NCBI GenBank assembly: GCA_003221655.1
Contig: QHSV01000236.1
Location: 1,041 to 65,040, forward strand
DNA: 64,000 bases
Direction of reading: 5' to 3'
Source: Candidatus Rokuibacteriota bacterium
GTDB lineage: Bacteria > Methylomirabilota > Methylomirabilia > Rokubacteriales > CSP1-6
Numbering within the stretch: position 1 is the first letter of the stretch; every line of letters starts with the position of its first letter. The notes below the pieces were generated by a model. That model did not search any database. It worked only from the letters and a program-made list of their open reading frames with translations, and was not told the origin of the DNA. Shown here one piece after another: positions 3,266 to 17,736 of the stretch. A program made the position numbers and the translations under genes.

Positions 3266-4411
3266 GTGGACTTCGACCTGACCCCCGAACAGCAGCAGCT
3301 CCGTGACGTCGCACGCGAGTTCGCCCGGGCCGAGCTCGGCGACAAGATCGCGCCGTTCGACGAGCGCCACGAGTTTCCCCACGAGATCGTGACGAAGCTG
3401 GGCCCGCTCGGCTTCCTCGGCGCTCTCGTGGGCGAAGAGTTCGGCGGCGCGGGGCTCGATTATGTGTCCTTCGCGCTGATCGTGGAAGAGCTCTGCCGCG
3501 GCGACGCGTCGATCGGCATAACGATGTGGGCGCACAACTCGCTCTGCGCCAACCACATCGCGATCTTCGGGTCGCCCGAGCAGAAGCGGAAATACCTACC
3601 GCCCCTCGCCAGCGGCCAGGTGCTGGGGGCCTGGGGCCTCACCGAGCCGGGCTCGGGCTCCGACGCCGCGGCGCTCGCCACGCGCGCCGAGCTCAGAGAC
3701 GGCGAGTGGGTCCTGAACGGGAGCAAGGCCTTCATTACCAACGCATCGGTCGCCTCGACCGCGGTGGTCATGGCCCGCACCGGCCCGGAGCGGAGGTCCA
3801 AGGGCATCTCCACCTTCATCCTCGAGAAGGGCATGCCCGGTTTCCGCAGCGGCAAGCCCTATCGCAAGCTCGGCCTGCACGCGTCGAACACAGCCGAGCT
3901 GATCTTCGAGGACGCCCGCGTCCCCGAGGCCAACTTGCTGGGTGAGCGTGGCACCGGGTTCGAGCAGGCCATGAAGGTGCTGGAGGGGGGGCGCATCGCG
4001 ATGGCGGCGATGGGGGTGGGCATCGCGCAAGCGGCGGTGGACCAAGCGGTCAAGTACATGAAGCAGCGCACCGCGTTCGGGAAGACACTCGCCGAGTTCA
4101 ACGGGCTCCAGGGCATGATCGCCGACCTCGCCACCGAGGTCGAGGTGGCGCGACTGCTCACGCTGCGCGCGGCGTATTTGAAAGACGCGGGCCGGCCGGC
4201 AATGCACGCGGCGGCGATGGCCAAGCTGTTCGCGTCCGAGGCGGCAATGAAGGCGGCGACGAAGGCCGTGCAGATCCACGGCGGCGCCGGCTACATCACG
4301 GAGTTCCCGGTCGAGCGTATCTTCCGGGACGCGAAGCTCACCGAGATCGGCGAAGGCACGTCCGAGATCCAGCGCATGCTCATCGCCCGGGAGATCCTTC
4401 AGCTCACGTGA
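3266..4411 (+). CDS. Acyl-CoA dehydrogenase.
   Basis: 381 aa, GTG start. ACAD family signatures throughout ([29 protein letters not shown]). Confidence 0.88.
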
Positions 4412-5190
4412 CGGCGGCGCGCGGCGAGCTGATCGCCATCGAGGGCGTCACCAAGCGCTATCTCACCAGCTCGGGCCCGGTGGAAGCGCTCCACGACGTT
4501 TCGCTCTCGGTCGGGGAGGGCGACTTCTGCACGCTCATCGGCCCTTCCGGGTGCGGCAAGTCCACGCTGCTCGGCATGCTCGGCGGCCTCGTGGCGCCCG
4601 ACGAGGGGCGCCTCCTGGTCGACGGCCAGCCGGTGACGACGCCGGACCCGCGGCGCGTCGCCACCGTGTTCCAGGACGCCGGCCTCTTCCCGTGGCGGAC
4701 CGCGCTGCAGAACGTCGAATTCGGCCTCGAGCTCCAGGGCGTGCCGGCCGCACGCCGTCGCCGGACGGCCAGCGAGCTGCTCGGCCCGCTCGGGCTCTCC
4801 GGCTTTGCCGAGAAGTACCCGCGCGAGCTGTCGGGCGGGATGAAGCAGCGCGTAGCGATCGGGCGCGCGCTGGCGATCGACGCGAAGATCCTCCTGATGG
4901 ACGAGCCGTTCGGCGCGCTCGACGAGCAGACGCGGGTCCTGATGGGCGAGTGGCTCCTCGACATCTGGCGGCGTACGCGCAAAACCGTCATCTTCGTGAC
5001 CCACAGCCTGCACGAGGCGCTGTTCCTGTCGACCCGCGTCGCCGTCATGACGGCCCGGCCCGGGCGGATCAAATCGATCCTGGAGCTGTCGATGGAATAC
5101 CCGCGGTCGGTGGAGTCGCCCGAGATGGCGGCGCTCCGCGCCAAGCTCTGGAGCGAGATCCGCGAGGAGTCGCTGCGGGCGATGCGGTGA
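4408..5190 (+). CDS. ABC transporter ATP-binding protein, NitT/TauT (sulfonate/nitrate/taurine) family.
   Basis: 260 aa. Walker [13 protein letters not shown] signature LSGGMKQR, Walker [11 protein letters not shown] start overlaps the upstream stop (GTGA). Confidence 0.85.
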
Positions 5191-5933
5191 GAGTCCTCTG
5201 GTTGCGCCTCGGTCTTCTCGCCGCCCTCCTGGCGGTCTGGGAGGTCGCGGGACGCGCCGCGAACCCGCTCCTCGCCGTACCACCCTCGGCAGTCCTCCCG
5301 GCATTGCGCGATCTTCTGCTGCTCCGCTCCTACCCCGAGCTGCCGGCGAGCCTCTGGCTGACGCTGCGCGAGATCGGGGCGGCGTACATGCTGGCGGTCG
5401 CGGCCGGACTCGGCTGCGGCTTCGTGCTCGGCATGCACCGGCTCGTCGGTCGCGTCTGGGGACCCATGTTGGCGGCGCTCTACGCAGTGCCGGCGGTCGT
5501 CTGGTACCCCTCCCTGATGCTCTTCTTCGGCCTCGACGCGGCCTCGAAGATCGCATTCGGCTTCCTGCTGGGCTTCTTTCCGATCACCCTGTCGGTTCTC
5601 GCCGGCGTTCGCCAGGTGAACCCGCAGTTCGTCACCGTCGCGCGCGCGTACGGCGCGGGCGCGGTGACCGTCTTCCGTCGGGTCATGTTGCCCTCGATGC
5701 TCTTCACGCTCGTAGGGGGACTGCGGACCGGGCTCGCGCTGTGCGTGATCGGCGTCATCGTCGGTGAGATCCTCGGCTCGAAGGCCGGCATAGGTGCTCT
5801 CATCAACCACGCGTACGGTCTTCTACGGACCGCGGACTACGTCGCGCTCGTACTCGTGACGCTGCTCCTGGTCGTCGGCTCTGACGTCCTCGCGAGCCTC
5901 CTCGAGCGCCGTGCCCGGCAGTGGACGGAATGA
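5187..5933 (+). CDS. ABC transporter permease, NitT/TauT family (SsuC/TauC-like).
   Basis: GTG at 5187 overlaps the ATPase stop (GTGA). ~249 aa with six predicted TM segments and a TauC-like EAA-loop region. The long upstream extension of ORF 4551..5933 lies in the ATPase gene and is rejected. Confidence 0.75.
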   Translation: MRVLWLRLGLLAALLAVWEVAGRAANPLLAVPPSAVLPALRDLLLLRSYPELPASLWLTLREIGAAYMLAVAAGLGCGFVLGMHRLVGRVWGPMLAALYAVPAVVWYPSLMLFFGLDAASKIAFGFLLGFFPITLSVLAGVRQVNPQFVTVARAYGAGAVTVFRRVMLPSMLFTLVGGLRTGLALCVIGVIVGEILGSKAGIGALINHAYGLLRTADYVALVLVTLLLVVGSDVLASLLERRARQWTE

Positions 5934-5947
5934 GGCGACACCCCAAC

Positions 5948-6055
5948 GGTGGTCCGCAGGAGCGGAGCCGGCTCGCGCCCGTCTCAGGCCATCGCTTCCC
6001 GAAGGGTGGTCCGCAGGAGCGGAGCCGGGTCGCACCCGTCTCAGGCCACCCCCGG
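5948..6055. repeat. Two tandem ~44-bp copies (5948-5991 and 6005-6055; two mismatches) of the 3' half of a dispersed intergenic repeat family, in reverse orientation.
   Basis: Direct repeat ggtggtccgcaggagcggagccgg(c/g)tcgc(g/a)cccgtctcaggcca. Its reverse complement matches GGTGGCCTGAGA...GCGACCCGGCTCCG, found at 20792, 46245 and 61137. Confidence 0.7.
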
Positions 6056-6069
6056 TCCAAGCCGGCCTC

Positions 6070-6566
6070 ATGGACCCCGCTACAATAATCCGAGTCCGGG
6101 TCCTCCAGCTCGTGACCGTGCTCGCCGCGGTCGTTTCGTGGGAGGTCGTGGCGCGGGCGGGGTGGGTCGATCCGCTCTTCGTCCCGGCGCCGAGCGCTGT
6201 CGCCCGGGCGCTCCTCCGGATCGGCGGCACCGCGTTCGCCGGGCTGGGCGACACGCTCGGCAAGACCGCGGTCGCCTACGTGCTGTCGGTGACGCTCGGC
6301 GTCTCTACTGGAAGGTGCTGCTCCCGGCGATCGTCCCGTCGGTGCTCGCGGGGATGCGGCTCGGCGTCGTGTTCTGCCTGCTCGGGGTCCTCGTGGTCGA
6401 AATGTTCGCCGGGGTCCGTGGCATGGGCTACGTCATGGGCTCGCTCGCCAATGGCTTCCAGGCCCCCGAGCTGTTCGCGGCGACCGGGCTCGTGTCGGCG
6501 GCGTCGATCGCGATCGTTCTGGCGCTCGACCACCTGAACGACAAGCTCTCACACTGGCGCGGCTGA
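6070..6566 (+). pseudogene. Degraded second ABC permease (TauC-like). N- and C-terminal parts are in different frames and the central ~100 aa are missing.
   Basis: Frame 1 (from ATG 6070) encodes the N-terminal TM region and ends ...AYVLSVTLGVSTG near 6306. Frame 2 continues from about 6302 (LYWKVLLPAIVPS) to the permease C-terminus at 6566. Alignment with the intact paralog at 5187-5933 shows that the EAA-loop region is absent. Confidence 0.6.
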
Positions 6567-6928: not shown

Positions 6929-7837
6929 CTACTCACCCCGAAGGGTCGGATCGAGGAGATCGCGGAGCCAGTCTCCCGTGCGGCTCACGACGATGGACGT
7001 GAGCATCAGCACGATCCCGGGAGCCGTCGAGATCCACCACGCCGAGTCGAGATACTCCCGCCCCTCGTGGACCATCCCGCCCCAGGACGGCGTCGGCGGC
7101 TGAACGCCGAGGCCGAGGAACGAAAGCGTCGCCTCGAGCACGATCGCGCGGGCCAGCTCGAGCGTGGCGATGACGACGAGCGACGAGAGCACATTGGGAA
7201 GGATGTGGCGGGCGATCACGCGCGCCACCGAGCCCCCGAGGGCGTGGATCGCGTCGACGAACTCGCGTGAGCGCAGCACCAGCACCTGCGATCGGAGGAC
7301 GCGCGCGTAGGTGACCCACCCCGAGAGCCCGATGACGACGATCAGCGTGGGGAAGCTCGGCCCGAGCACCGCGATGATCCCGATCGCGAGCAGGATGAAG
7401 GGAAACGCGAGCTGGGCGTCGGCGAGCGTCATGATCATGCTGTCGGTCCAGCCGCCGCGGAAGCCGGCCAGGAGGCCGAGCGTGGTGCCGACGATTCCGC
7501 CGACCACCACAGCCGCGAAGCCGACCAGCAGCGAGACCCGCGCCCCGTGGATCATGCGCGAGAGGACGTCGCGCTCGAGGTGGTCGGTGCCGAGCACGTG
7601 CGCCTTGCCATCGGCGGCAGAGAGCGTGGGGGCCGCCAGCCGCGCCCGCAGCGACTGGCGGACGGGATCGTGCGGCGCAATCACCGGCGCGGCCAGCGCG
7701 GTCACGACCAGCAGCAAGACAAACACCCCGCCGCCGAGCGCCATCCGCCGGGTTCGTCGCCCACGGCTCGAGCGGACCGTCGCCGCCCCGGCCGGGCCCA
7801 CGTCAGATCGAGCGGACGCGGGGATCGAGGAGACCAT
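6929..7837 (-). CDS. ABC transporter permease, peptide/nickel (DppC/OppC) family.
   Basis: 302 aa. TM segments, conserved EAA-type loop region and a C-terminal DppC-like tail. An alternative start at 7744 (MALGGG) is possible. Confidence 0.8.
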   Translation of the reverse strand: MVSSIPASARSDVGPAGAATVRSSRGRRTRRMALGGGVFVLLLVVTALAAPVIAPHDPVRQSLRARLAAPTLSAADGKAHVLGTDHLERDVLSRMIHGARVSLLVGFAAVVVGGIVGTTLGLLAGFRGGWTDSMIMTLADAQLAFPFILLAIGIIAVLGPSFPTLIVVIGLSGWVTYARVLRSQVLVLRSREFVDAIHALGGSVARVIARHILPNVLSSLVVIATLELARAIVLEATLSFLGLGVQPPTPSWGGMVHEGREYLDSAWWISTAPGIVLMLTSIVVSRTGDWLRDLLDPTLRGE

Positions 7838-8729
7838 AGACCAGGTCGATGCAGAAGTTGATCACGATGAAGAGTACGGTCGACAGGAACACCGTGCACT
7901 GCACGACGGGGTAGTCGCGGTTGTAGATCGACTGGATCGCGAGCCGTCCGATGCCCGGCCACGCAAATACCGTCTCCGTCACGACGGCGCCGCCGAGCAG
8001 CGTGCCGAACTGCAGCCCGGTGATGGTGACGATCGGGACGGCCGCGTTCTTCAGCGTGTGCTTGGTGACGACCAGCGCCTCGGACAGGCCCTTGGCGCGG
8101 GCGGTCCGGATGTAGTCCGCGCGCAGCACTTCGAGCACCGCCGACCGGGTGAGCCGGGCGATCGAGGCCATGGCGAAGGCGCCGAGCGTGAGCGCGGGCA
8201 GGACGAGATTCCGCCAGTCCTCCCGGCCGGAGGTCGGCAGGAGGCCGAGCTTCAGCGAGACGACCAGGATCAGGAGAATCCCGATGAAGAACGTCGGCGC
8301 GGACTGGCCGACGAGCGCCAGTCCCATGGTGACCTGGTCGACCGGGGAGTTGCGCCGAACCGCAGAGACCACGCCGATGGGCAGGGCGACGAGCGACGCG
8401 AGGACGAACGCCGTCAGGCCGAGCTCGAATGTCGCCGGCAGGTAGCCGAGTACCACGCGAAAGGCGGGCTGGCGAAAGTGGATCGACCGGCCGAAGTCCC
8501 CGCGGAGAACGTTGCCGAGGAAGACAACGTATTGCACAGGCAGGGGACGGTCGAGGCCGAGCTCGGCGCGGACGCGGAAGATCTCGCTGCGCGGGGCGTC
8601 GGGAGGCAAGAGCAACGGCACGGGATCGCCCGACAGGCGCATGACCACGAAGACGACGGTCGAGACGAGCCAGAGCGCGACCGCCGCGCGGAGGAGTCGG
8701 GAGCCGAGGAACGGGAGGAGCCCGCGCAT
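7803..8729 (-). CDS. ABC transporter permease, peptide/nickel (DppB/OppB) family.
   Basis: 308 aa with a typical DppB N-terminus (MRGLLPFLGSRLL...) and conserved membrane domain. Confidence 0.85.
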   Translation of the reverse strand: MRGLLPFLGSRLLRAAVALWLVSTVVFVVMRLSGDPVPLLLPPDAPRSEIFRVRAELGLDRPLPVQYVVFLGNVLRGDFGRSIHFRQPAFRVVLGYLPATFELGLTAFVLASLVALPIGVVSAVRRNSPVDQVTMGLALVGQSAPTFFIGILLILVVSLKLGLLPTSGREDWRNLVLPALTLGAFAMASIARLTRSAVLEVLRADYIRTARAKGLSEALVVTKHTLKNAAVPIVTITGLQFGTLLGGAVVTETVFAWPGIGRLAIQSIYNRDYPVVQCTVFLSTVLFIVINFCIDLVYGLLDPRVRSI

Positions 8730-8774
8730 AGGCGCGGGGGCGGAACCCGCCAGGCTCCGCCCCCGGAAGCCGGT

Positions 8775-10319
8775 CTACGCGCGGCGGAACTTGAAGTTGA
8801 AGCGGCGGATCTCGAGCTGCTGCAGCGGGTCCGGCGTCCACTCCACGTGCTTCTGGAGCCCGTAGTCCTCGTACGGCTGGATCACCGGAATCCACGGAAA
8901 GTGCTCCAGGGAGATCTTGGTCATCTTCCGGTACGCGTCGGCGCGGAACTTCTCGTCGACCGAGAAGCGGGCGGCGTTGCCGAGCTCGTCGAACTCGGGA
9001 TGACGCCAGTAGTCCTGCGGGCCACCGGGACCGAGCAGGCGCCACATCATGCCGTCGGGGTCGCGCAGCGTTGACGTCGGATCCGACCACCACACGCCCT
9101 TGAAGCTCTTGTCGCGGTTCTTCTGGGCGCGCACGGAATACTCGAAGAGCTCGACCTTGGCGTTGACCCCGGCGTCGCGCCACATGGCCTGAACGGCCTC
9201 GGCCATGGTCCTGTCGCCCGCCATGTAGCCCGCGGTGGTTTCGATGACGATCTCCTCGTTCTTGTAGCCGGCCTTGCGCAGACGCTCCCTGGCTTCCTTT
9301 GGATCGTAGGCGAGGGGCGGCAGCGAAGCGTCGAAGTGATTGTCGCCCTTGGCGATGGGGCCGCTGGGAACGACGCCTCGTCCTCGCCACAGCTCCTTGA
9401 CGATGGTCTCCCGGTCGATGGCCAGTGAGAGCGCCTGCTTGACCAGCGGGTTGTCGAGCGGCGGCCGCTTCGAGTTCACGGCGAGCACGTAGAGCCCGCC
9501 GTAGAGGGCGCCGCTCACCAGGGTGCCGGCGTTGGCCTTGACTCGTTCGCCCTGGTCGGGCGGAACCTGGGTGATCAGATCCACTTCGCCCTTGAGCAGG
9601 GCCGCCACCCGGGGCGCCATCTCGGGCAGGGCCCGAACGATGAGGCGATCGAAGTCCACACGGCCGCCCCAGTAGTCCGGGTTCGCCTCGAGCACGACCC
9701 TGTCGTCCTTCGTCCAGGAGACAAAGCGCACGGGTCCCGTGCCGACCGGCTTCTGGTTGAAGGTGTCGGGGCCGACCGCGTCCAGGTATTTCTTGGGCAC
9801 GATCTGCCCGCCGTAGAACCCGAGCCGCGCGGGCAGCAGCGGATCGGGCTTCTTGGTGTGAATGATCAGCGTCGCCGGGTCCGGCGCCTCGAGCCTATCT
9901 ACGGTCGTGAAGACGGTGTTGACCCGCATTTTGGTATTGGGATCGTAGGTGCGCTCGATGCTGAACTTGGCGTCCGCCGAGCTGAAGGGGTCGCCGTTGT
10001 GCCACTTGACGCCCTGGCGCAGCTTGAACACCCACGTCGTCTGGCCCTGGAGCTTCCACTCCATCGCGAGGCCCGGCGCCAGCTTGCCGTCCGGGCGCCG
10101 GCTCGTCAGGTTGTCGAAGAGATTGAACGAGATGCGGATGTCGTTCGACGATGTGCTCATGTGCGGGTCGAACTGGGCGACGTCGCCGCCCTGAGCGACG
10201 ACGAGCTCGCGCTTCTGCGTACCTTGCGAGTGCGCGGGGCTCGCGATCACGCCCGGCAGCGCGGCGCTGGCTCCGGCTGCCGCGATCTTGAGTACCTCCC
10301 GGCGGGTCATCTCGGCCAT
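8775..10319 (-). CDS. ABC transporter substrate-binding protein, family 5 (peptide/nickel type), Tat-secreted.
   Basis: 514 aa. Twin-arginine signal (MAEMTRREVLKIAAAGASAALPG). GGAGG RBS 6 nt upstream. SBP_bac_5-like sequence. Confidence 0.85.
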   Translation of the reverse strand: MAEMTRREVLKIAAAGASAALPGVIASPAHSQGTQKRELVVAQGGDVAQFDPHMSTSSNDIRISFNLFDNLTSRRPDGKLAPGLAMEWKLQGQTTWVFKLRQGVKWHNGDPFSSADAKFSIERTYDPNTKMRVNTVFTTVDRLEAPDPATLIIHTKKPDPLLPARLGFYGGQIVPKKYLDAVGPDTFNQKPVGTGPVRFVSWTKDDRVVLEANPDYWGGRVDFDRLIVRALPEMAPRVAALLKGEVDLITQVPPDQGERVKANAGTLVSGALYGGLYVLAVNSKRPPLDNPLVKQALSLAIDRETIVKELWRGRGVVPSGPIAKGDNHFDASLPPLAYDPKEARERLRKAGYKNEEIVIETTAGYMAGDRTMAEAVQAMWRDAGVNAKVELFEYSVRAQKNRDKSFKGVWWSDPTSTLRDPDGMMWRLLGPGGPQDYWRHPEFDELGNAARFSVDEKFRADAYRKMTKISLEHFPWIPVIQPYEDYGLQKHVEWTPDPLQQLEIRRFNFKFRRA

Positions 10320-10397
10320 TACACGCCTCCCTCGGCGGTGCGTGGGTTTCGGACGTCAGAGGGCTCTATATGGGGGCGGTTCGCGACGCCTGTCAAG

Positions 10398-10419
10398 GCC
10401 CCGGCCCGCGGGCCGGGGC
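10398..10419 (-). terminator. GC-rich perfect hairpin (GCCCCGGCCC/GGGCCGGGGC) immediately after the stop of the gene at 10420. Putative intrinsic terminator without a U-tract.
   Basis: 9-10 bp palindrome directly abutting the TAA stop. A TTGACA -35-like hexamer follows on the minus strand (10396-10391) for the downstream operon. Confidence 0.4.
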
Positions 10420-11745
10420 TTAGCTGGTGGCGGGAAGGGTGAGGGGTGAGCGGCGCACACGCGCCTGCACGTCAGTGACGACGTCCCGCTCGAGCGTGAT
10501 CTCGACCTCGTGCTGCTCCACCGACCAGTGACTGACCGTCGCGAGCCACCCGAAGCGGCGTTGACGCTGGGGCACGACCCGACGCCCGCGGTAGACGACC
10601 GTGCGCCGATCAGGCGTGGCGAGCTGCTCGTGCTCTTCGGGGGCGCCACCGCCGAGCCGCAAGACCTCCTCGTATCGCGTCGTCCCCGGCACGATGCGTG
10701 CGAGTGTATCGCGCGAGAAGATGACGCCGGTCTGCCGCGCGGCGTCGCCGGGCCCAAACTGAACGCGACTCGCGAGCTGCGCGCCCGCCCGACGCGCGAT
10801 CATCATGAAGAGGGGCATCGCCAGGTTGCCGAGGGCGAAGAAGACGATCGGGATCAGGACCGGCGCCCAAGACCGCAGGCCCTTGAAGTAGCCGAACTGC
10901 ACCGTCAGGACCTGGGGACTGATGCCTTCGGAGCGGTCGAGGAAGAGCGAGATCTCCTCGGTCGAGTCGAGCGTCTCGCTGAGCCGGCGTCCCGCCGTGC
11001 GCGGGAAGATGTCGTAGATCTTGAGGTGCTCGGCGTCGCGAAAGTTTAGGACGAGCTGCGACGGGTCGTCGGCGAGACGGATGACACGGTCCCGATGCTC
11101 GAAATAGAGCGGGAACAGGGCGCGCGGCCGCACGTCGTTGAACGTGAGCGAGATCGCGTGGTGCGGGCCCCAAAACGCGTCCTCGATCCACGTCGCCGTG
11201 CGCCGCTTGACGAGGTCCGTCACCTGCATCCGGAGGTTCATCAGCCAGGTGCGGTTGGCGAGCAGGGGCGTCCAGGGGATCCGCACGTAGGTCACGGGCG
11301 ACGTGAGGCCGAGCGGGCCACCCAGGCGGATGATCGTCACGAACGGCGCGCCGCCGGCGACGGGCTCGGGCGGCAGCTCCTCGCCGATACGATAGAGACT
11401 CTGCGCGAAGAGCGGCAGGCGCCCCTCCTTGATCGGCGTGAACCCGCGCGCCGCGACGTACGCGGCGAGCGCCGCGTCGGGCGGCCCGTCCGCCGCGCTC
11501 GCGCCGACCGAATTCGGCCAGAGGAGATAGAGATCCTGCTGGATGGCGGCGGCGCTCCGGGTCGGCGGGATCACGAGGCTCCAGAGGACGTCCAGCGTGA
11601 CGGCGCTGAGCTCGGGCGTCACGGTCGCGCGCACGAAGAGCGGGCCGATCGTGAACTCGGGGTTCGGCCGCGAGGCGAGGAAGACCTGTCCTTCGGCGGC
11701 AACGGGGGCCACGAGCAGGAGCGCCGCGATCCAGACGCGGATCAC
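10420..11745 (-). CDS. Uncharacterised membrane protein, paralog 1 (signal peptide, ~280-aa N-terminal domain, one TM segment, ~115-aa C-terminal domain).
   Basis: 441 aa, GTG start 12 nt after the upstream stop. About 50% identical over its full length to the next gene. No recognised catalytic motif. Confidence 0.6.
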   Translation of the reverse strand: MIRVWIAALLLVAPVAAEGQVFLASRPNPEFTIGPLFVRATVTPELSAVTLDVLWSLVIPPTRSAAAIQQDLYLLWPNSVGASAADGPPDAALAAYVAARGFTPIKEGRLPLFAQSLYRIGEELPPEPVAGGAPFVTIIRLGGPLGLTSPVTYVRIPWTPLLANRTWLMNLRMQVTDLVKRRTATWIEDAFWGPHHAISLTFNDVRPRALFPLYFEHRDRVIRLADDPSQLVLNFRDAEHLKIYDIFPRTAGRRLSETLDSTEEISLFLDRSEGISPQVLTVQFGYFKGLRSWAPVLIPIVFFALGNLAMPLFMMIARRAGAQLASRVQFGPGDAARQTGVIFSRDTLARIVPGTTRYEEVLRLGGGAPEEHEQLATPDRRTVVYRGRRVVPQRQRRFGWLATVSHWSVEQHEVEITLERDVVTDVQARVRRSPLTLPATS

Positions 11746-11757
11746 CGGAGAGCTCTC

Positions 11758-13110
11758 TCAGGCCCGCCCCGGCTGGGTCAGGCGACTCCTGTGGACCTGG
11801 GCCTGGATGTCGCGGACTCTGTCGCCGTCGAGCTCGATCTCGACCTCATGGTGCTCGACGTCCCAGCGGTGCACGGTCGCGAGCCAGCCGAGCCGCCGTT
11901 GCCGGTAAGGCACGACACGCCGCCCGCGGTAGACGAGGGTACGGCGGCCCGGCGCGCTGAGACGCTCGCGCTCCTCCGGGTTGGGCCCGCAAAGGCTGAG
12001 GATCTCGTCGTACGTCGTCTCGCCCGGCGAGATGCGCGCGAGCGTCTCGCGCGGGACGACTGTCCCGGTATCGTGCCGGGCGGGAGCGCTACTGCGCGGC
12101 CCGAAGTGAATGCGTCCCTGGATCCGCGCGCCGACACCCTTGGCGAGGGTCGTGACCAGCGGCCCCGCGAGGTTGCCCAGGACGAAGAAGAGCGTGGCGA
12201 AGAGGACCGGCGCCCAGGCCTTCCAGCCCGTGAAGTATCCGAACTGCACCGACAAGACTTGAGGTCGAATTCCCTCGGACGGATCGAGATAGGCCGAGAC
12301 GATCTCCGTGGCCCGGCGGGTCTCGCTCGATCGCCGCTGGCTCGAGCCCGGATAGACCTCGTGGATTTTCAGGTGATCCGAGTCTGCGAAGTTGATGATG
12401 AGCTGGGAAGGATCGTCGGCGAGGTGGACGACGCGATCGCGATGGGCAAGGTACATCGGGAACGTCGCGCGCGTCCTGACGTCGTTGAAGCTCAGGGTGA
12501 TCACGTGACGCTCGCCCCAGAGGACGTTCTCCAGCCAGGTGGCTTGCTTCGGCCGCCGGAGAGTCGTCAGGCGCATCCGGAGCTCGACGAGCCACGTGCG
12601 ATCGACGAGCCGGGGCGTCCACGGGATCCGGATCCAGCTCGCCGGCGCGCCCTGGCCGAGCGGGCCGCCCTCTCGGGAGTAGGTGACGAACGGCGCGCCG
12701 CCATCAAGTGCCTCGGGTCGCGGGCGCTGGGGGCCTGAGTACACGGCCCGTGCCGAGAGCGGCAGTCGTCCTTCCCGCGTCACCTGGAATCCACGCGCCT
12801 CGACGGTGCGGCGGAGCTCGGGCTCGGGCGCGCCGGCAACGGCCTCGCCGTCCACCTCGCCGGGCCAGAGAAGGTAGAGGTCCTGCTCGCGCACACCGCC
12901 GCTGACGGTGGCCGGCACCACGACGCTGAAGAGCACGGTGACGTCGACCGGCCCGGCGGCGGGCCCGACGTTCGCCCGGACGAAGAGCGGGCCGATCGTG
13001 AACTCGGGCTTGGGGTGGGTCGCGATGAAGACCTGGGCCGTCCCGACTCCCGGACTCGCGCCGAGCAGGATGAGCAGGCCGATGAGGATGGTAAGCGGAC
13101 GACTATGCAA
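11758..13110 (-). CDS. Uncharacterised membrane protein, paralog 2 (same architecture as 10420-11745).
   Basis: Collinear homology with paralog 1 begins at a TTG at 13110 (LHSRPLTILIGLLILL...). The Ser/Arg-rich N-terminal extension of ORF 11758..13428 overlaps the SBP gene and is rejected. ~450 aa. Confidence 0.55.
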   Translation of the reverse strand: MHSRPLTILIGLLILLGASPGVGTAQVFIATHPKPEFTIGPLFVRANVGPAAGPVDVTVLFSVVVPATVSGGVREQDLYLLWPGEVDGEAVAGAPEPELRRTVEARGFQVTREGRLPLSARAVYSGPQRPRPEALDGGAPFVTYSREGGPLGQGAPASWIRIPWTPRLVDRTWLVELRMRLTTLRRPKQATWLENVLWGERHVITLSFNDVRTRATFPMYLAHRDRVVHLADDPSQLIINFADSDHLKIHEVYPGSSQRRSSETRRATEIVSAYLDPSEGIRPQVLSVQFGYFTGWKAWAPVLFATLFFVLGNLAGPLVTTLAKGVGARIQGRIHFGPRSSAPARHDTGTVVPRETLARISPGETTYDEILSLCGPNPEERERLSAPGRRTLVYRGRRVVPYRQRRLGWLATVHRWDVEHHEVEIELDGDRVRDIQAQVHRSRLTQPGRA

Positions 13111-13126
13111 GCGACAATGACTCGCG

Positions 13127-14098
13127 CTACACCCGAACAGGCGTGAACTCCCGGGTGTAATGGTCGGCGAGGAGGAGCTTCTTCTTGATGAGGCCGTGCT
13201 CGAGGAGCGTCTCCTGCATGACCACGAGCGCCTCCACGTTGATCTGACCGTCGACGGGCAGCAACGGACCGGAGATCTTGTGGGCGCCGAGCACCGCCTC
13301 CGGGGTCCAGCCGAGCTTCTTGGACACGAGCTCCGCCGCGTCTCTCGGGTTCTCGCGCATGAGCTTGAGCGCACGGAAGAGCGCTCGCTGGCTCTTCCGG
13401 ATCGCGTCGGTCTGCTTGACGATCGCATCCTCGGACGCGTACTGGATCTGACTGATCCACTTCGGCGTCACCGAGTCCAGGCGCAGGAGGACCTTGGACT
13501 TGCCCTGGAGCTCGGTCACCGCTCCGCCGTCGCCCCAGACGTAGGCGGTGATCTCCTTGCGGGCCATGGCCGCGAGCTGTGCGTCGAGGCCGCCGAGGCC
13601 GACAACCTGGACGTCCTTGTCCGGGTCCCAGCCTTCCTTCTTGGCGAGCATGCGAGCGAAGACCCACGTCGTGGCGCCCACGCGGGTGACACCGATCACC
13701 TTGCCCTTCAGGTCGCCGACCCGCTGGACGTCCAGCGCGACGTTCAGCGTGAAGTGGTTGCCCTCGGTGTGCGTCGCGATCATCTTGATCGGCGAGCCGG
13801 CCTCGCGGAAGACGAGAATGTCGGTGCTGCCGGTGATCCCGACGAGACACTCGCCGGCCATCACCGCCTTGAGAAGATCCGGGCCGCCGCGAAACGGCAC
13901 GAACTCGGCAGCGAGCCCCTCGGACTTGAAGAAGCCCCGCTCGAGGGCGACGATGACCGGGCCCGCCATCGAGTAGTCGCCGAGCACCGCCGTCCCGATC
14001 TTGACCGCGGTCTGCGCGCGGGCCGCGCGCGTCAGGACGGGGGTCGTCGTCGCGGCGAGGGCACCGGCGACGAACCGGCGGCGTGTGGTCACGGTCAT
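13127..14098 (-). CDS. ABC-type substrate-binding protein, NMT1/THI5/SsuA-like (sulfonate/nitrate/taurine family), Tat signal.
   Basis: ATG at 14098 preceded by AAGGAGG. TRRRFVAG twin-arginine motif with an AxA cleavage site. NMT1-like periplasmic binding fold sequence. Confidence 0.8.
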   Translation of the reverse strand: MTVTTRRRFVAGALAATTTPVLTRAARAQTAVKIGTAVLGDYSMAGPVIVALERGFFKSEGLAAEFVPFRGGPDLLKAVMAGECLVGITGSTDILVFREAGSPIKMIATHTEGNHFTLNVALDVQRVGDLKGKVIGVTRVGATTWVFARMLAKKEGWDPDKDVQVVGLGGLDAQLAAMARKEITAYVWGDGGAVTELQGKSKVLLRLDSVTPKWISQIQYASEDAIVKQTDAIRKSQRALFRALKLMRENPRDAAELVSKKLGWTPEAVLGAHKISGPLLPVDGQINVEALVVMQETLLEHGLIKKKLLLADHYTREFTPVRV

Positions 14099-14242
14099 GG
14101 ACGGGGCCTCCTTATCAGTCACAGGCGCCCCTCGCGCTTCGCGCTGCGGCGGCGCACATCCGGGCGGCCTTGACTTTCACACGACACGCGGTGATCGTAC
14201 AACTTCGTGAGCGGCGTCCACAATCTCACCGAGCGGACCTAG

Positions 14243-15028
14243 ATGACCGAGGCGCTCGTCACCTACGAAGCCAGGGACGGAGTCGGCTGGATCACGCTCA
14301 ACCGGCCGAACGTCCTGAACGCGCTGTCCACCGAGCTCGCCGCCGCGCTCGCCGATCACGCCGCGACCGCCGCGACCGACGCCCGCGTCGCGCAGGTGGT
14401 CGTGCGCGGGGCCGGCCGGGCGTTCTGCTCGGGCATGGACCGGACCGCGCTCGCGGCGGGGTCGATCGGCGAGGCGTTCTATCGGCACTGGAACCGCGCG
14501 CTCGACCGCCTGGAGGACATGCCGAAGCTCACGGTCGCCGTCCTGCATGGCTACTCGATCGGTGGCGGCCTGCAGCTGGCGCTCGCGTGCGATCTCCGTT
14601 TGGTCACCGACGACGCCATCCTCGGCCTCGGCGCGACCCGCCACGGCCTCGTTCCCGACGGCGCAGTGCTACGCCTGGCGCGCGTCGTCGGCGTGGGGCG
14701 CGCCAAGGAGCTGGCGCTCCTGAACGACCACGTGAGCCCCGCCGAGGCGCGCGCCATCGGCCTCGTCAACTGGGTGTGTCCGCGCGCCGACCTCGACCGG
14801 GCGCTCGCGACTGTCATCGGGAAGGCGCGCGGCGCCTCTCCCACCGCGACCGCCCACACCAAGCGACTGCTCCACGACTCGTTCCACCGCGACCCGCGCG
14901 GGCTGATCGAGGAGGTGCTGAGGGCGCAGCGCGAGTGCGTGGCGTCGTGGGAGATGGACGAGTCCAACCGTGCGTGGAAGGAGAAGCGGGAGGCGCGCTT
15001 CTATCCGCCGGCCGGCTTGCCCTCCTGA
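14243..15028 (+). CDS. Enoyl-CoA hydratase/isomerase (crotonase family).
   Basis: 261 aa. Crotonase fold motifs (ITLNRPNVLNAL, GGGLQLALACD). Confidence 0.85.
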   Translation: MTEALVTYEARDGVGWITLNRPNVLNALSTELAAALADHAATAATDARVAQVVVRGAGRAFCSGMDRTALAAGSIGEAFYRHWNRALDRLEDMPKLTVAVLHGYSIGGGLQLALACDLRLVTDDAILGLGATRHGLVPDGAVLRLARVVGVGRAKELALLNDHVSPAEARAIGLVNWVCPRADLDRALATVIGKARGASPTATAHTKRLLHDSFHRDPRGLIEEVLRAQRECVASWEMDESNRAWKEKREARFYPPAGLPS

Positions 15029-15029
15029 G

Positions 15030-15785
15030 ATGGCCGACGACGTCATTCTGGAAACCGAGGGGCTCACCAAGGAGTTTCGCGGCTTCGTCGCGGTGAAGGA
15101 CGTGAGGCTGCGCGTGCGCCGTGGGACGATCCACGCGCTCATCGGCCCCAACGGCGCCGGCAAGACTACCTGCTTCAATCTCCTGACCCATTTCCTGGCA
15201 CCCACCCGCGGGCGCATCCGCTTCAAGGGTCGCGAGATCACCGGCTCCCGGCCCGCGGACATCGCCCGGCTGGGTCTCGTGCGCTCGTTCCAGATCTCGG
15301 CCGTGTTCCCCCACCTCTCGGTACTGGAGAACGTGCGCGTCGCGCTCCAGCGCACGCGCGGCGCGTCGTTCGACTTCTGGCGGTCGGAGCGAGTGCTCGA
15401 CGGCCTGAACGGCCGCGCGGTCGAGCTGATCGAGGCGGTGGGCCTCGCAGCGTTCGCGCGCACGCCCGCCGTGGAGCTGCCGTACGGGCGCAAGCGCGCC
15501 CTGGAGATCGCGACGACGCTGGCGCTCGAACCGGAGATGATGTTGCTCGACGAGCCGACCGCCGGGATGGCCCACGACGACGTGGAGCGCATCTCGGCGC
15601 TGATCAAGCGCGTGGCGGCGAACCGCACGGTCCTGATGGTCGAGCACAACCTCAGCGTGGTCGAGAATCTCTCGGACATCATCACGGTCCTGGCGCGGGG
15701 CGAAGTCCTCGCGGAGGGCGACTACCGGAGCGTGTCGCGGAACCAGGACGTGATCCAGGCCTACATGGGCTCGGGCCATGCCTGA
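15030..15785 (+). CDS. livG: ABC ATP-binding protein, LivG-type (HAAT family).
   Basis: ATG two nt after the upstream stop. Walker A GPNGAGKTT. LivG-like sequence. Confidence 0.85.
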   Translation: MADDVILETEGLTKEFRGFVAVKDVRLRVRRGTIHALIGPNGAGKTTCFNLLTHFLAPTRGRIRFKGREITGSRPADIARLGLVRSFQISAVFPHLSVLENVRVALQRTRGASFDFWRSERVLDGLNGRAVELIEAVGLAAFARTPAVELPYGRKRALEIATTLALEPEMMLLDEPTAGMAHDDVERISALIKRVAANRTVLMVEHNLSVVENLSDIITVLARGEVLAEGDYRSVSRNQDVIQAYMGSGHA

Positions 15786-16482
15786 GCCGCTGCTCGAGGT
15801 TCGCGACCTCCACGCCTGGTACGGCGAGTCCCACATTCTGCACGGCGTCGATTTCGAGATCGGCCCGGGCGAGATGGTGACGCTCCTGGGCCGCAACGGC
15901 GCCGGCAAGACGACGACGCTCAAATCGATCATGGGCATCGTCGGCCGGCGGCGGGGCTCCATCCGCTTCGAGGGCCGCGAGCTCATCGATCTCCCGTCCA
16001 ACCGTATCGCGCGGCTCGGGCTTGCGTTCTGCCCGGAGGAGCGCGGCATCTTCGCGAGCCTCACCGTCGAGGAGAATCTCTTGCTCCCGCCGGTGGTCCG
16101 GCCCGGCGGGCTCGGGGTCGACGCGATCTACGGGCTCTTCCCCAACCTCCGGGAGCGGCTCCGGGCGGGCGGCACGACGCTGTCGGGTGGCGAGCAGCAG
16201 ATGCTGGCGATCGGCCGCATCCTGCGAACCGGCGCCCGGCTCCTGCTGCTCGACGAGCCGACCGAGGGGCTGGCCCCGGTGATCGTCCAGCAGATCGGTG
16301 TCACGCTCCGGCGGCTCAAGAGCGAAGGATTCACCGTCCTCCTCGTCGAGCAGAACTTCCGCTTCGCCGCGACCGTCGCCGACCGTCACTACGTGATGGA
16401 GCACGGCCGGGTGGTGGACATGATTCCGAACGGAGAGCTCGACGCCAACATGAACAAGCTCCATGACTACCTCGGGGTATAG
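15778..16482 (+). CDS. livF: ABC ATP-binding protein, LivF-type (HAAT family).
   Basis: 234 aa. Walker A GRNGAGKTT. Signature LSGGEQQMLAIGR. Confidence 0.85.
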   Translation: MPEPLLEVRDLHAWYGESHILHGVDFEIGPGEMVTLLGRNGAGKTTTLKSIMGIVGRRRGSIRFEGRELIDLPSNRIARLGLAFCPEERGIFASLTVEENLLLPPVVRPGGLGVDAIYGLFPNLRERLRAGGTTLSGGEQQMLAIGRILRTGARLLLLDEPTEGLAPVIVQQIGVTLRRLKSEGFTVLLVEQNFRFAATVADRHYVMEHGRVVDMIPNGELDANMNKLHDYLGV

Positions 16483-16524
16483 TGCCGGCGGACGACCAAC
16501 ATCTGTCGCGAAGGAGCGCAGCGC

Positions 16525-17736
16525 ATGACCATCGCACGCATCGTCGCACTCATCGGCGTTCTGGCCCTGGCCTCGAGCCCGGCCCGCGCCCAGATTTCCG
16601 ACGGCGTCGTCAAGATCGGGGTCCTCAACGACCAGTCGAGCCTCTACGCCGACCTGGCCGGCCAGGGCTCGGTGGTGGCGGCGCGGATGGCGGTCGAGGA
16701 CTACGGGGCCGCCGCAAAGGGCCTGAAGGTCGAGATCGTGTTCGCGGATCACCAGAACAAGGCCGACGTCGGCTCCCAGCTCGCCCGCCAGTGGTACGAC
16801 GCCGAGAAGGTGGACCTCATCCTCGACGTCCCCAACTCCGGCGTCGCGCTCGCCGTCAACCAGATCACCCGCGACAAGGGCAAGGCGTTCATCGTTTCCT
16901 CTGCGGCGTCGTCCGACCTCACCGGCAAGGCGTGCTCGCCCAACACGATCCACTGGACGTACGACACGTGGGCGCTCGCGAACGGCACCGGCAACGCGGT
17001 CGTGAAGACCGGCGGCGACACCTGGTTCTTTATGACCGCCGACTACGCGTTCGGCCACGCGCTCGAGCGCGATGTCGAGGCGGTCGTGCTCAAGAACGGC
17101 GGCAAGGTCCTGGGCAAGGTCCGGCACCCGCTCAACACCCAGGACTTCTCGTCGTTCCTGCTCCAGGCGCAGGCCTCGAAGGCCAAGATCATCGGCCTGG
17201 CCAACGCCGGCGGCGACACCACCAACGCCATCAAGCAGGGCGCCGAGTTCGGCATCGTGAAGGGCGGCCAGAAGTTCGCAGGTCTCCTGGTCTTCCTCAC
17301 CGACGTGCACGCGCTCGGCCTCGAGAAAGCCCAGGGGCTGACCTTCACCGAGACCTTCTACTGGGATCTCAACGAGAAAACGCGCGCGTTCGCGAAGCGG
17401 TTCGCCGAGCGCAATCGGGGGATCCATCCGACGATGATCCACGCCGGCGTCTACGCCGGGACGCTGCACTACCTCAAGGCCGTCGAGGCGCTCAAGAGCG
17501 ACGAAGGCGCCAAGGTCATCGCCAAGATGAAGGAGCTACCGACGGACGACCCGCTCTTCGGCAAGGGGACTATCCGCGTCGACGGCCGCAAGATCCATCC
17601 AGCGTACCTCGTCGAGGTGAAGAAGCCGGCCGAGTCGAAGTACCCGTGGGACTACTACAAGATCCAGGCGACCATCCCGGCCGAGCAGGCGTTCCGGCCG
17701 CTCGACCAGGGAGGGTGCGAGCTCGTCAAGAAATAG
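16525..17736 (+). CDS. Periplasmic substrate-binding protein, LivK/Leu-Ile-Val-binding-protein family (type I PBP).
   Basis: 403 aa with an N-terminal signal peptide. Type I periplasmic-binding-fold sequence. Confidence 0.8.
   Translation: MTIARIVALIGVLALASSPARAQISDGVVKIGVLNDQSSLYADLAGQGSVVAARMAVEDYGAAAKGLKVEIVFADHQNKADVGSQLARQWYDAEKVDLILDVPNSGVALAVNQITRDKGKAFIVSSAASSDLTGKACSPNTIHWTYDTWALANGTGNAVVKTGGDTWFFMTADYAFGHALERDVEAVVLKNGGKVLGKVRHPLNTQDFSSFLLQAQASKAKIIGLANAGGDTTNAIKQGAEFGIVKGGQKFAGLLVFLTDVHALGLEKAQGLTFTETFYWDLNEKTRAFAKRFAERNRGIHPTMIHAGVYAGTLHYLKAVEALKSDEGAKVIAKMKELPTDDPLFGKGTIRVDGRKIHPAYLVEVKKPAESKYPWDYYKIQATIPAEQAFRPLDQGGCELVKK

Follow-up and report, generated by a model that had tools for sequence, protein, structure and literature searches.

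In gene order, the closest described counterparts of the locus reported here are the NitT/TauT-type ATP-binding cassette (ABC) importers SsuABC, TauABC and SaoXPA, and in predicted fold they are the N-domains of LTA4H and other M1 aminopeptidases and the eukaryotic protein Ost1/ribophorin I. We analyzed a window of 64,000 nucleotides (nt) of contig QHSV01000236.1 from a Candidatus Rokuibacteriota bacterium, a representative of the Rokubacteria/Methylomirabilota, which are abundant in soil and groundwater and uncultured. On the minus strand of this window, two adjacent paralogous genes, A and B, follow a gene for an NMT1/SsuA-type substrate-binding protein (SBP); X is the name used here for the A/B protein family. 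As in the NitT/TauT importer systems, the gene upstream of X encodes an SsuA/TauA/SaoX-like SBP, and ATPase and permease genes lie nearby. Unlike the components of those systems, X has one membrane helix and no BPD_transp_1 or ABC domain, and it is also present in genomes with neither an SBP nor an importer gene nearby. X is directly predicted to be a type I single-pass inner-membrane protein with a Sec-type signal peptide, a periplasmic ectodomain, one helix and a cytoplasmic alpha+beta domain of about 100 amino acids (aa). We regard the anatomy of X, the limits of the family and its evolutionary history as set out below with high confidence.

The coordinates given for the two adjacent minus-strand open reading frames (ORFs) in the initial annotation of the window were borne out. 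An alignment of the encoded proteins over 430 residues shows 55% identity (E = 3e-170), slightly above the approximately 50% at which their paralogy had first been proposed. Each contains two hydrophobic segments, one at the N-terminus and a second at residues 292-318 (A) or 298-322 (B) that bears the motif WAPVL...FFxLGNLA. The two genes and the predicted parts of their products are listed below, with the basis of each assignment.

11758-13110, minus strand: paralog B, 450 aa, TTG start at 13110, stop codon within the coordinates (ORF, alignment with A)
13036-13110, minus strand: signal peptide of B, residues 1-25, predicted cleavage between GTA and Q (hydrophobicity, family alignment)
12220-13035, minus strand: exported beta-rich domain of B, residues 26-297 (alignment with A, model of A)
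12145-12219, minus strand: membrane helix of B, residues 298-322, WAPVLFATLFFVLGNLAGPLVTTL (hydrophobicity)
11761-12144, minus strand: cytoplasmic linker and alpha+beta tail domain of B, residues 323-450 (alignment with A, hydrophobicity, tail model)
10420-11745, minus strand: paralog A, 441 aa, GTG start, stop codon within the coordinates (ORF, alignment with B)
11689-11745, minus strand: signal peptide of A, residues 1-19, predicted cleavage between AEG and Q (hydrophobicity, family alignment)
10873-11688, minus strand: exported beta-rich domain of A, residues 20-291, about 16 strands (AlphaFold2 model, Foldseek)
10792-10872, minus strand: membrane helix of A, residues 292-318, with the LGN motif (hydrophobicity, conservation)
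10423-10791, minus strand: cytoplasmic linker and tail domain of A, residues 319-441 (tail model)

The topology first proposed for the pair (a signal peptide, an exported domain, one transmembrane helix near residue 300 and a conserved tail) agrees with the hydrophobicity profiles and with the cleavage-site pattern of 94 family members. In these 94 sequences the mature N-terminus is an invariant Gln, position -3 is Ala in 81, and position -1 is either Ala (67) or Gly (27). Judged from the sequences, this AxA-Q arrangement is a canonical signal peptidase I site. Because the signal peptide is cleaved and a single further helix follows, the first ~270 residues are predicted to be periplasmic and the last ~120 cytoplasmic. 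The tail is positively charged (net +5 to +7), and Arg residues stand directly after the membrane helix. Two other classes of envelope protein were considered and rejected. X is not a lipoprotein, given the invariant Gln after the cleavage site, the A/A or A/G residues at -3/-1 and the absence of a lipobox Cys; B has no Cys at the end of its signal peptide, and A has no Cys at all, which by itself removes A from this class. Nor is X a membrane anti-sigma factor, as its N-terminus is a cleavable signal peptide and no anti-sigma Pfam domain was matched; in the loci inspected, X adjoins genes for binding proteins, hydratases and peptidases rather than for sigma factors.

An AlphaFold2 model of full-length A, built from a 27-sequence alignment (mean pLDDT 78, pTM 0.60), has around 16 strands with a few short helices at residues 19-286, a long helix at 289-325 and a tail of two helices and strands. 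When the tail was modeled by itself (residues 326-441, 58 sequences; pLDDT 83, pTM 0.72), a pair of helices preceded one short strand and three longer ones of 13-19 residues. Conservation is highest in the C-terminal 123-128 aa and strong in both domains: across 100 family sequences, 49 positions reach a conservation of at least 97%. Those in the ectodomain include D71, E188, five Arg, three Trp and two Tyr, and Gly306 of the LGN motif in the helix reaches the same level. No His is found among the 49 positions, the translations of A and B contain no HExxH, and neither protein matched Pfam Peptidase_M1.

The statement in the initial annotation that the pair could be placed in no family was confirmed by every sequence library searched. 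With A and B as queries, Pfam, NCBIfam, PADLOC and PHROGs gave no match beyond one PHROG at E = 0.58. Pfam searches of 27 members at E ≤ 10 produced chance matches in one or two members only, and single-sequence and profile searches of PDB sequences found only chance membrane-helix matches to ND4. By sequence, X is outside every described family tested and is an unclassified orphan family; no new mechanism is demonstrated. A literature search returned nothing useful on a fold link between Ost1 and LTA4H or on Rokubacteria hypothetical proteins.

With A as query, sequence searches recovered 1062 clusters at 90% identity, and with B 1112; none carries a Pfam domain, and those that have names are annotated as "hypothetical protein" of Candidatus Rokubacteria/Rokuibacteriota. 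When 1.84 billion representatives at 50% identity were searched with a profile, 434 proteins were found at E ≤ 1e-3, a number from which we conclude that the family is compact; the best 150 of the 434 were mostly fragments with about 13 full-length clusters, and there were no more distant relatives among the matches listed. Scanning one genome per GTDB species yielded 139 confirmed X loci, and all counts of neighborhood and taxonomy given here cover 80 of these species-level loci. Of these 80, almost all have titles that name Rokubacteria, Methylomirabilota or Methylomirabilia. Identity of X across the phylum ranges from 46 to 97%, and one locus (L009, JAHFDK010000031.1) is 97% identical to the window. 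Other titles (Binatia, Acidoferrum, Sulfotelmatobacter, Limnocylindria, Verrucomicrobiia) belong to one series of metagenome-assembled genomes (MAGs; SMAG_U..., loci L016, L047, L060, L068, L071, L078, L081 and L088). L016 carries the gene order of Rokubacteria in full, at 77-93% identity, so that mis-binning or mislabeling of these contigs is likely. One further record, P0064 (688 aa), joins the first ~245 residues of the NMT1 SBP in frame to a complete X at the signal peptide. It was rejected as a natural SBP::X fusion, being a single-member record without contig information and probably a deletion or assembly artefact; a frameshift fusion of SBP and X would also leave the ectodomain on the side of the membrane where it does not belong.

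A neighbor-joining tree of 100 family sequences grouped B and its orthologues, which share 76-98% identity, in one clade, sister to a clade that holds the orthologues of A together with several single-copy lineages. The A and B clades were each recovered in about 14 species genomes. Conservation of the SBP-paralog-paralog order in related genomes, proposed as a check on the annotation, was partly upheld: the tandem B-A order after the SBP gene was found in 14 of the 80 loci, and all of these fall in one sub-clade. B is missing from some close relatives (L001, L006/L007, L019), and others have the B type alone (L065, L038). The ratio of nonsynonymous to synonymous substitution rates (dN/dS) between genomes was 0.21-0.34 for A and 0.19-0.20 for B. 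Taken together, the tree, the copy losses and the dN/dS values indicate an old lineage-specific duplication whose two copies are both under purifying selection, each being occasionally dispensable. On one 1.01-Mb contig (contig_53032, L008/L013), the SBP, SBP_bac_5, acyl-CoA dehydrogenase and permease genes are fragmented and the X pair is intact; fragmentation of this pattern is typical of uncorrected long-read indel errors.

Having defined the family, we compared the surroundings of its genes. An NMT1-type SBP gene lies directly upstream of X on the same strand in 44 of the 80 loci, with gaps of 2-181 nt. At eight loci X occupies the same position, divergent from the enoyl-CoA hydratase/LivGF genes, with no SBP or NitT/TauT importer gene within 6 kb; at five it is transcribed away from two M16 peptidase genes, and the remaining 23 have other or unreadable surroundings. 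A functional tie to the SBP, which the initial annotation had implied, is thus favored by the gene order in the 44 loci and opposed by the occurrence of X in the three other settings. X stays beside the hydratase gene even where the NMT1 SBP gene is missing. At the loci without an SBP for which genes were called (L039, L043, L048, L066), X is alone in its transcription unit, with a divergent gene upstream and a convergent gene downstream. A conserved operon partner was sought in the most distant clades and none was found. The neighbors there are mutually unrelated and include a multihaem cytochrome, an Rce1-like protease, an adenylate-cyclase/AAA/TPR protein, a luciferase-like oxidoreductase, a DUF2278 protein and an amino-acid permease. 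Downstream of X in one distant clade, a gene on the same strand (L078, 7425-11015; L069, 6995-10585; L082, 7220-11155) codes for a protein of ~1200 aa with a double zinc ribbon, an adenylate/guanylate cyclase domain, AAA_16 and TPR repeats. Since the contexts differ and X stands alone at the loci without an SBP, we conclude that the family has no obligate operon partner.

At several loci the start of the first X gene after the SBP gene appears to be unusual. The mechanical ORF of B runs to 13428, an extension of 131 codons that overlaps the SBP gene in another frame. That this extension might hold the real start had been raised as a ground for revising the annotation; we rejected it because B orthologues have no open frame beyond 39-60 codons 5' of the mature N-terminus. 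An alternative start is available closer to the gene.

13138-13140, minus strand: alternative CTG start for B, within the last SBP codons, with GGGAG 7 nt upstream

This CTG sits ten codons 5' of the TTG at 13110, from which a signal peptide of 25 residues is obtained, and the mature protein is identical whichever start is used. Of 88 family genes, 12 (L012, L014, L015, L017, L021, L025, L026, L038, L039, L047, L065, L067) lack an ATG, GTG or TTG codon in the 15-40 codons ahead of the mature N-terminus; 11 of these are the first X gene after an SBP gene. In these SBP-linked cases a CTG, the same as that of B, is found 4-5 codons before the SBP stop, with GGGAG or GAGAG 7 nt upstream. The remaining one, L039, has no SBP gene but carries AAGGAGG, an 8-nt spacer and CTG. 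Gene callers shorten X genes of this kind to 394-404 aa. From these sequence patterns, CTG initiation coupled to termination of the upstream SBP gene is the likely explanation for the missing starts. Conservation of the CTG and its Shine-Dalgarno (SD)-like motif cannot, though, be credited to X alone, because the motif overlaps conserved SBP codons (REFTPV).

We also compared the predicted structures with known folds. Foldseek searches of the PDB with the full A model gave 17 matches at E ≤ 1e-3, all of them N-domains of LTA4H/M1 aminopeptidases or Ost1/ribophorin I from yeast and human. The best 50 matches were almost all LTA4H/M1 N-domains, Ost1/RPN1 and ITIH1, with E values of 2e-4 to 7e-3 and probabilities of 0.77-1.0. 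A library of viral structures held nothing significant, but its weak matches, among them a giant-virus ITI-family protein and a DUF4139 protein, agree with the PDB result. In the model, the ectodomain weakly resembles non-catalytic beta-sandwich binding domains at the level of fold, a resemblance that is not evidence of homology. The tail model found no fold match in the PDB, where the best entry was NTF2/PhzA-like (E = 0.16, probability 0.63, TM-score 0.29).

Our favored interpretation, which we put forward with low confidence, is that X is a non-enzymatic, stand-alone periplasmic binding or scaffold protein of the cell envelope. It is taken to stand alone, rather than to serve as a transporter subunit, because it is the only gene of its unit at the loci without an SBP that were checked; X is usually single-copy per locus and often monocistronic. 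It is taken not to be an enzyme because it has no Pfam or NCBIfam match, no HExxH, no Cys in A and no conserved His. The ectodomain would hold a periplasmic partner (a protein, peptide or glycan), as suggested by the shape that it shares with the M1 N-domain, the lumenal domain of Ost1/ribophorin I and VIT, and the LGN helix and cytoplasmic domain may mediate oligomerization or a link to an intracellular component. Within the lineage of the window, X would be co-produced with the NMT1/SsuA-type SBP, its gene coming directly after that of the SBP, and both A and B are kept by selection, which can plausibly be read as a putative A-B hetero-oligomer. Several observations weigh against this interpretation. 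An enzyme may lack known catalytic motifs, and an active site could be built from the conserved periplasmic residues Q70, D71, R155, E188, R206, Y214, R218, R220, Q278 and Y286 together with three Trp. The adjacency of SBP and X in 44 of 80 loci, with the X start often overlapping the SBP stop, exceeds loose synteny and could mean a direct partnership. Finally, the fold matches have TM-scores of only 0.22-0.26 normalized to 441 residues, with root-mean-square deviations (rmsd) of 8-16 Å.

The same observations underlie the alternatives. X could be the membrane partner of the NMT1/SsuA-type SBP, docking the loaded SBP and either tethering it near the importer or signaling to the cytoplasmic domain, an account that we consider unlikely. 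Beyond the frequent adjacency of the two genes and their short gaps, it draws on the 11 loci at which a CTG and an SD-like GGGAG/GAGAG within the last SBP codons point to translational coupling, on the export of both proteins, and on the recurrence in many loci of SBP and X together with a convergent NitT/TauT importer block. The eight loci without an SBP or importer within 6 kb, the five by M16 peptidases and the unrelated neighbors in other clades argue against it, as does a tail without a recognizable signaling or DNA-binding fold; moreover, the overlap of the CTG/SD-like motif with the REFTPV codons means that its conservation may owe nothing to X. We consider improbable a broader proposal, in which X is a phylum-restricted single-pass receptor or adaptor whose ribophorin-I/VIT-like ectodomain captures the SBP or an envelope macromolecule and whose cytoplasmic domain relays this inward. 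Were it true, the CTG-based coupling to the NMT1-type SBP would be functional and A/B would be a heteromeric receptor; in a variant of the same proposal, X would be a true bacterial homologue of the oligosaccharyltransferase (OST) subunit Ost1. It is similarly doubtful that X is a new type of membrane-anchored periplasmic enzyme, with for example a glycan, a peptide or an anionic polymer of the envelope as substrate and an active site of conserved Asp, Glu, Arg, Trp and Tyr. The very high phylum-wide conservation, with its 49 nearly invariant positions, and a gene that is often monocistronic, as is common among housekeeping enzymes, would fit such an enzyme, but no enzyme family or catalytic motif was matched, the structural neighbors are non-catalytic domains, and an enzyme would leave the equally strong conservation of the cytoplasmic domain unexplained.

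Two further alternatives rest on likeness to particular proteins. A role as the bacterial equivalent of Ost1/ribophorin I, in which X would share the ectodomain fold and be the type I accessory subunit of a larger membrane machine, for instance a glycosyltransferase or translocon-associated complex, appears very unlikely. Chains from at least five OST structures are among the best PDB matches and give the longest alignments (307-318 columns, E = 3e-4 to 9e-4), exceeding the length of the ectodomain, and the order of parts predicted for X (signal peptide, beta-sandwich, helix, cytoplasmic tail) is that of Ost1. Against this stand TM-scores of 0.22-0.26 with an rmsd of 14-16 Å, the absence of any match to Pfam Ribophorin_I (PF04597) even at E ≤ 10 in 27 members, and the absence of an STT3/PglB-like gene among the genes adjoining X in loci with called or annotated genes, a comparison that covers adjoining genes only. 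The M1 N-domain matches equally well, so the likeness may reflect a shared fold only. The initial annotation had also noted a loose resemblance of the tail to BamE, from which it would follow that the tail is SmpA/OmlA-like and that A and B are relatives of envelope-assembly lipoproteins. This lead was not substantiated, and we judge it extremely unlikely. The order of secondary structure in the tail model, with its two helices and three main strands, is the same as in BamE, and a permissive hhalign alignment with BamE is collinear throughout the domain (X 337-428 with BamE 32-108), although not significant. However, hhalign gives a probability of only 1.1% for E. coli BamE, a query whose identity was confirmed, and of 0.25% when 114 enterobacterial BamE sequences are combined in a profile, PF04355 was unmatched even at E ≤ 10 in 27 members, and no BamE chain is among the top 50 PDB fold matches of the tail. 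There is also no lipobox Cys, and the domain follows the membrane helix, on the predicted cytoplasmic side. The stand-alone binding or scaffold protein remains the interpretation that we favor.

The window has a G+C content of 65-73%, and the minus-strand genes around the pair run in the order NMT1/SsuA-like SBP, B, A, family-5 SBP, DppB-like and DppC-like permease. The genes that surround A and B, including an importer on the opposite strand, are as follows.

13127-14122, minus strand: NMT1/SsuA-like periplasmic SBP (Pfam NMT1, 1.3e-25; NCBIfam SsuA_fam, 3.8e-30, under the curated cut-off)
8775-10319, minus strand: family-5 (Dpp/Opp-type) SBP, the next same-strand gene, 100 nt past A (Pfam SBP_bac_5, 2.6e-87)
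6929-8729, minus strand: DppB-like (7803-8729) and DppC-like (6929-7837) permease genes, without an ATPase gene after them
4408-6566, plus strand: NitT/TauT-type ABC importer, ATPase 4408-5190, permeases 5187-5933 and 5949-6566 (family matches)

The NMT1/SsuA-like SBP gene is the first of its unit, and its translation contains a twin-arginine motif, TRRRF. Its stop codon (13127-13129) is separated from the TTG of B by 16 nt, the spacing noted initially, and the stop codon of B from the GTG of A by 12 nt; the gap from the stop of A to the next gene is 100 nt. A scan for promoters and terminators detected no promoter-like sites and two terminator-like sites, both intragenic and not above shuffled sequence, with none between the SBP, B and A genes. 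Given the gaps of 12-16 nt and the lack of a terminator-like site between the genes, co-transcription of SBP, B and A is likely, as had been suggested. Rfam found nothing at E ≤ 0.1 over 8000-16000. Divergent from this unit, a plus-strand block at 14243-17736 encodes an enoyl-CoA hydratase, LivG, LivF and a LivK-like binding protein, and it is syntenic in most X loci, down to 52% X identity.

As first described, no transporter membrane or ATPase gene adjoins the pair, the NitT/TauT ATPase and permeases lying on the plus strand. This ATPase is TauB/SaoA/NtrCD-like and the two permeases are SaoP/SsuC/TauC-like; their genes come after those for an aminotransferase, a HIT protein, a B12-binding protein and an acyl-CoA dehydrogenase, and their operon contains no binding-protein gene. 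An ATPase and two permeases occupy the same relative position on the opposite strand in four related loci with gene tables, and a weak ABC-ATPase match (27-31% to LivG) is found at that position in many more. The SBP encoded at 13127-14122 most likely serves this importer, 6.5-9.7 kb away, and not X; X is therefore not needed to explain the "orphan" SBP. The components of two importers are split between two converging units: the minus-strand unit (6929-14122) has two SBP genes and Dpp-type permeases but no ATPase gene, and the plus-strand NitT/TauT unit has no SBP gene. We rejected X as an ABC importer subunit, as it has one helix besides the signal peptide, matches neither BPD_transp_1 nor ABC_tran, and occurs at loci without a transporter.

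X is among the best-conserved lineage-specific envelope proteins of the Rokubacteria/Methylomirabilota. Conserved hypothetical proteins restricted to one phylum are common; X stands out by its degree of conservation, by a type I topology with a folded cytoplasmic domain, which is uncommon in bacteria, and by an odd start-codon arrangement linked to the SBP gene. Defining the family would clear a recurrent "hypothetical protein" from hundreds of MAGs, provide a phylum marker and point to a phylum-specific function of the envelope. It would be of wider interest if the ectodomain proved to be a true relative of Ost1 or VIT, or if X proved to be an SBP receptor.

The N-domain of M1/LTA4H, a non-catalytic beta-sandwich, gives the best Foldseek match to the A model (E = 2e-4, probability 1.0), with an rmsd of 8-11 Å over ~280 columns; unlike these enzymes, X is membrane-anchored and has neither an HExxH catalytic domain nor a helical C-domain. 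VIT/ITIH and DUF4139 proteins are marginal fold matches (ITIH1 6fpy_B, E = 7e-3), but X has no VWA domain and matches neither VIT nor DUF4139 in Pfam. BamE is a periplasmic lipoprotein of ~110 aa, whereas the tail of X follows a membrane helix and has strands about twice as long. Ost1/ribophorin I has the type I layout predicted for X, with signal peptide, beta-sandwich domain, one helix and cytoplasmic tail, and is among its best PDB matches, with the longest alignments, although these are weak (TM-score ~0.25). It differs in that the two have no sequence similarity and their cytoplasmic domains differ in predicted fold, and X is confined to one bacterial phylum.

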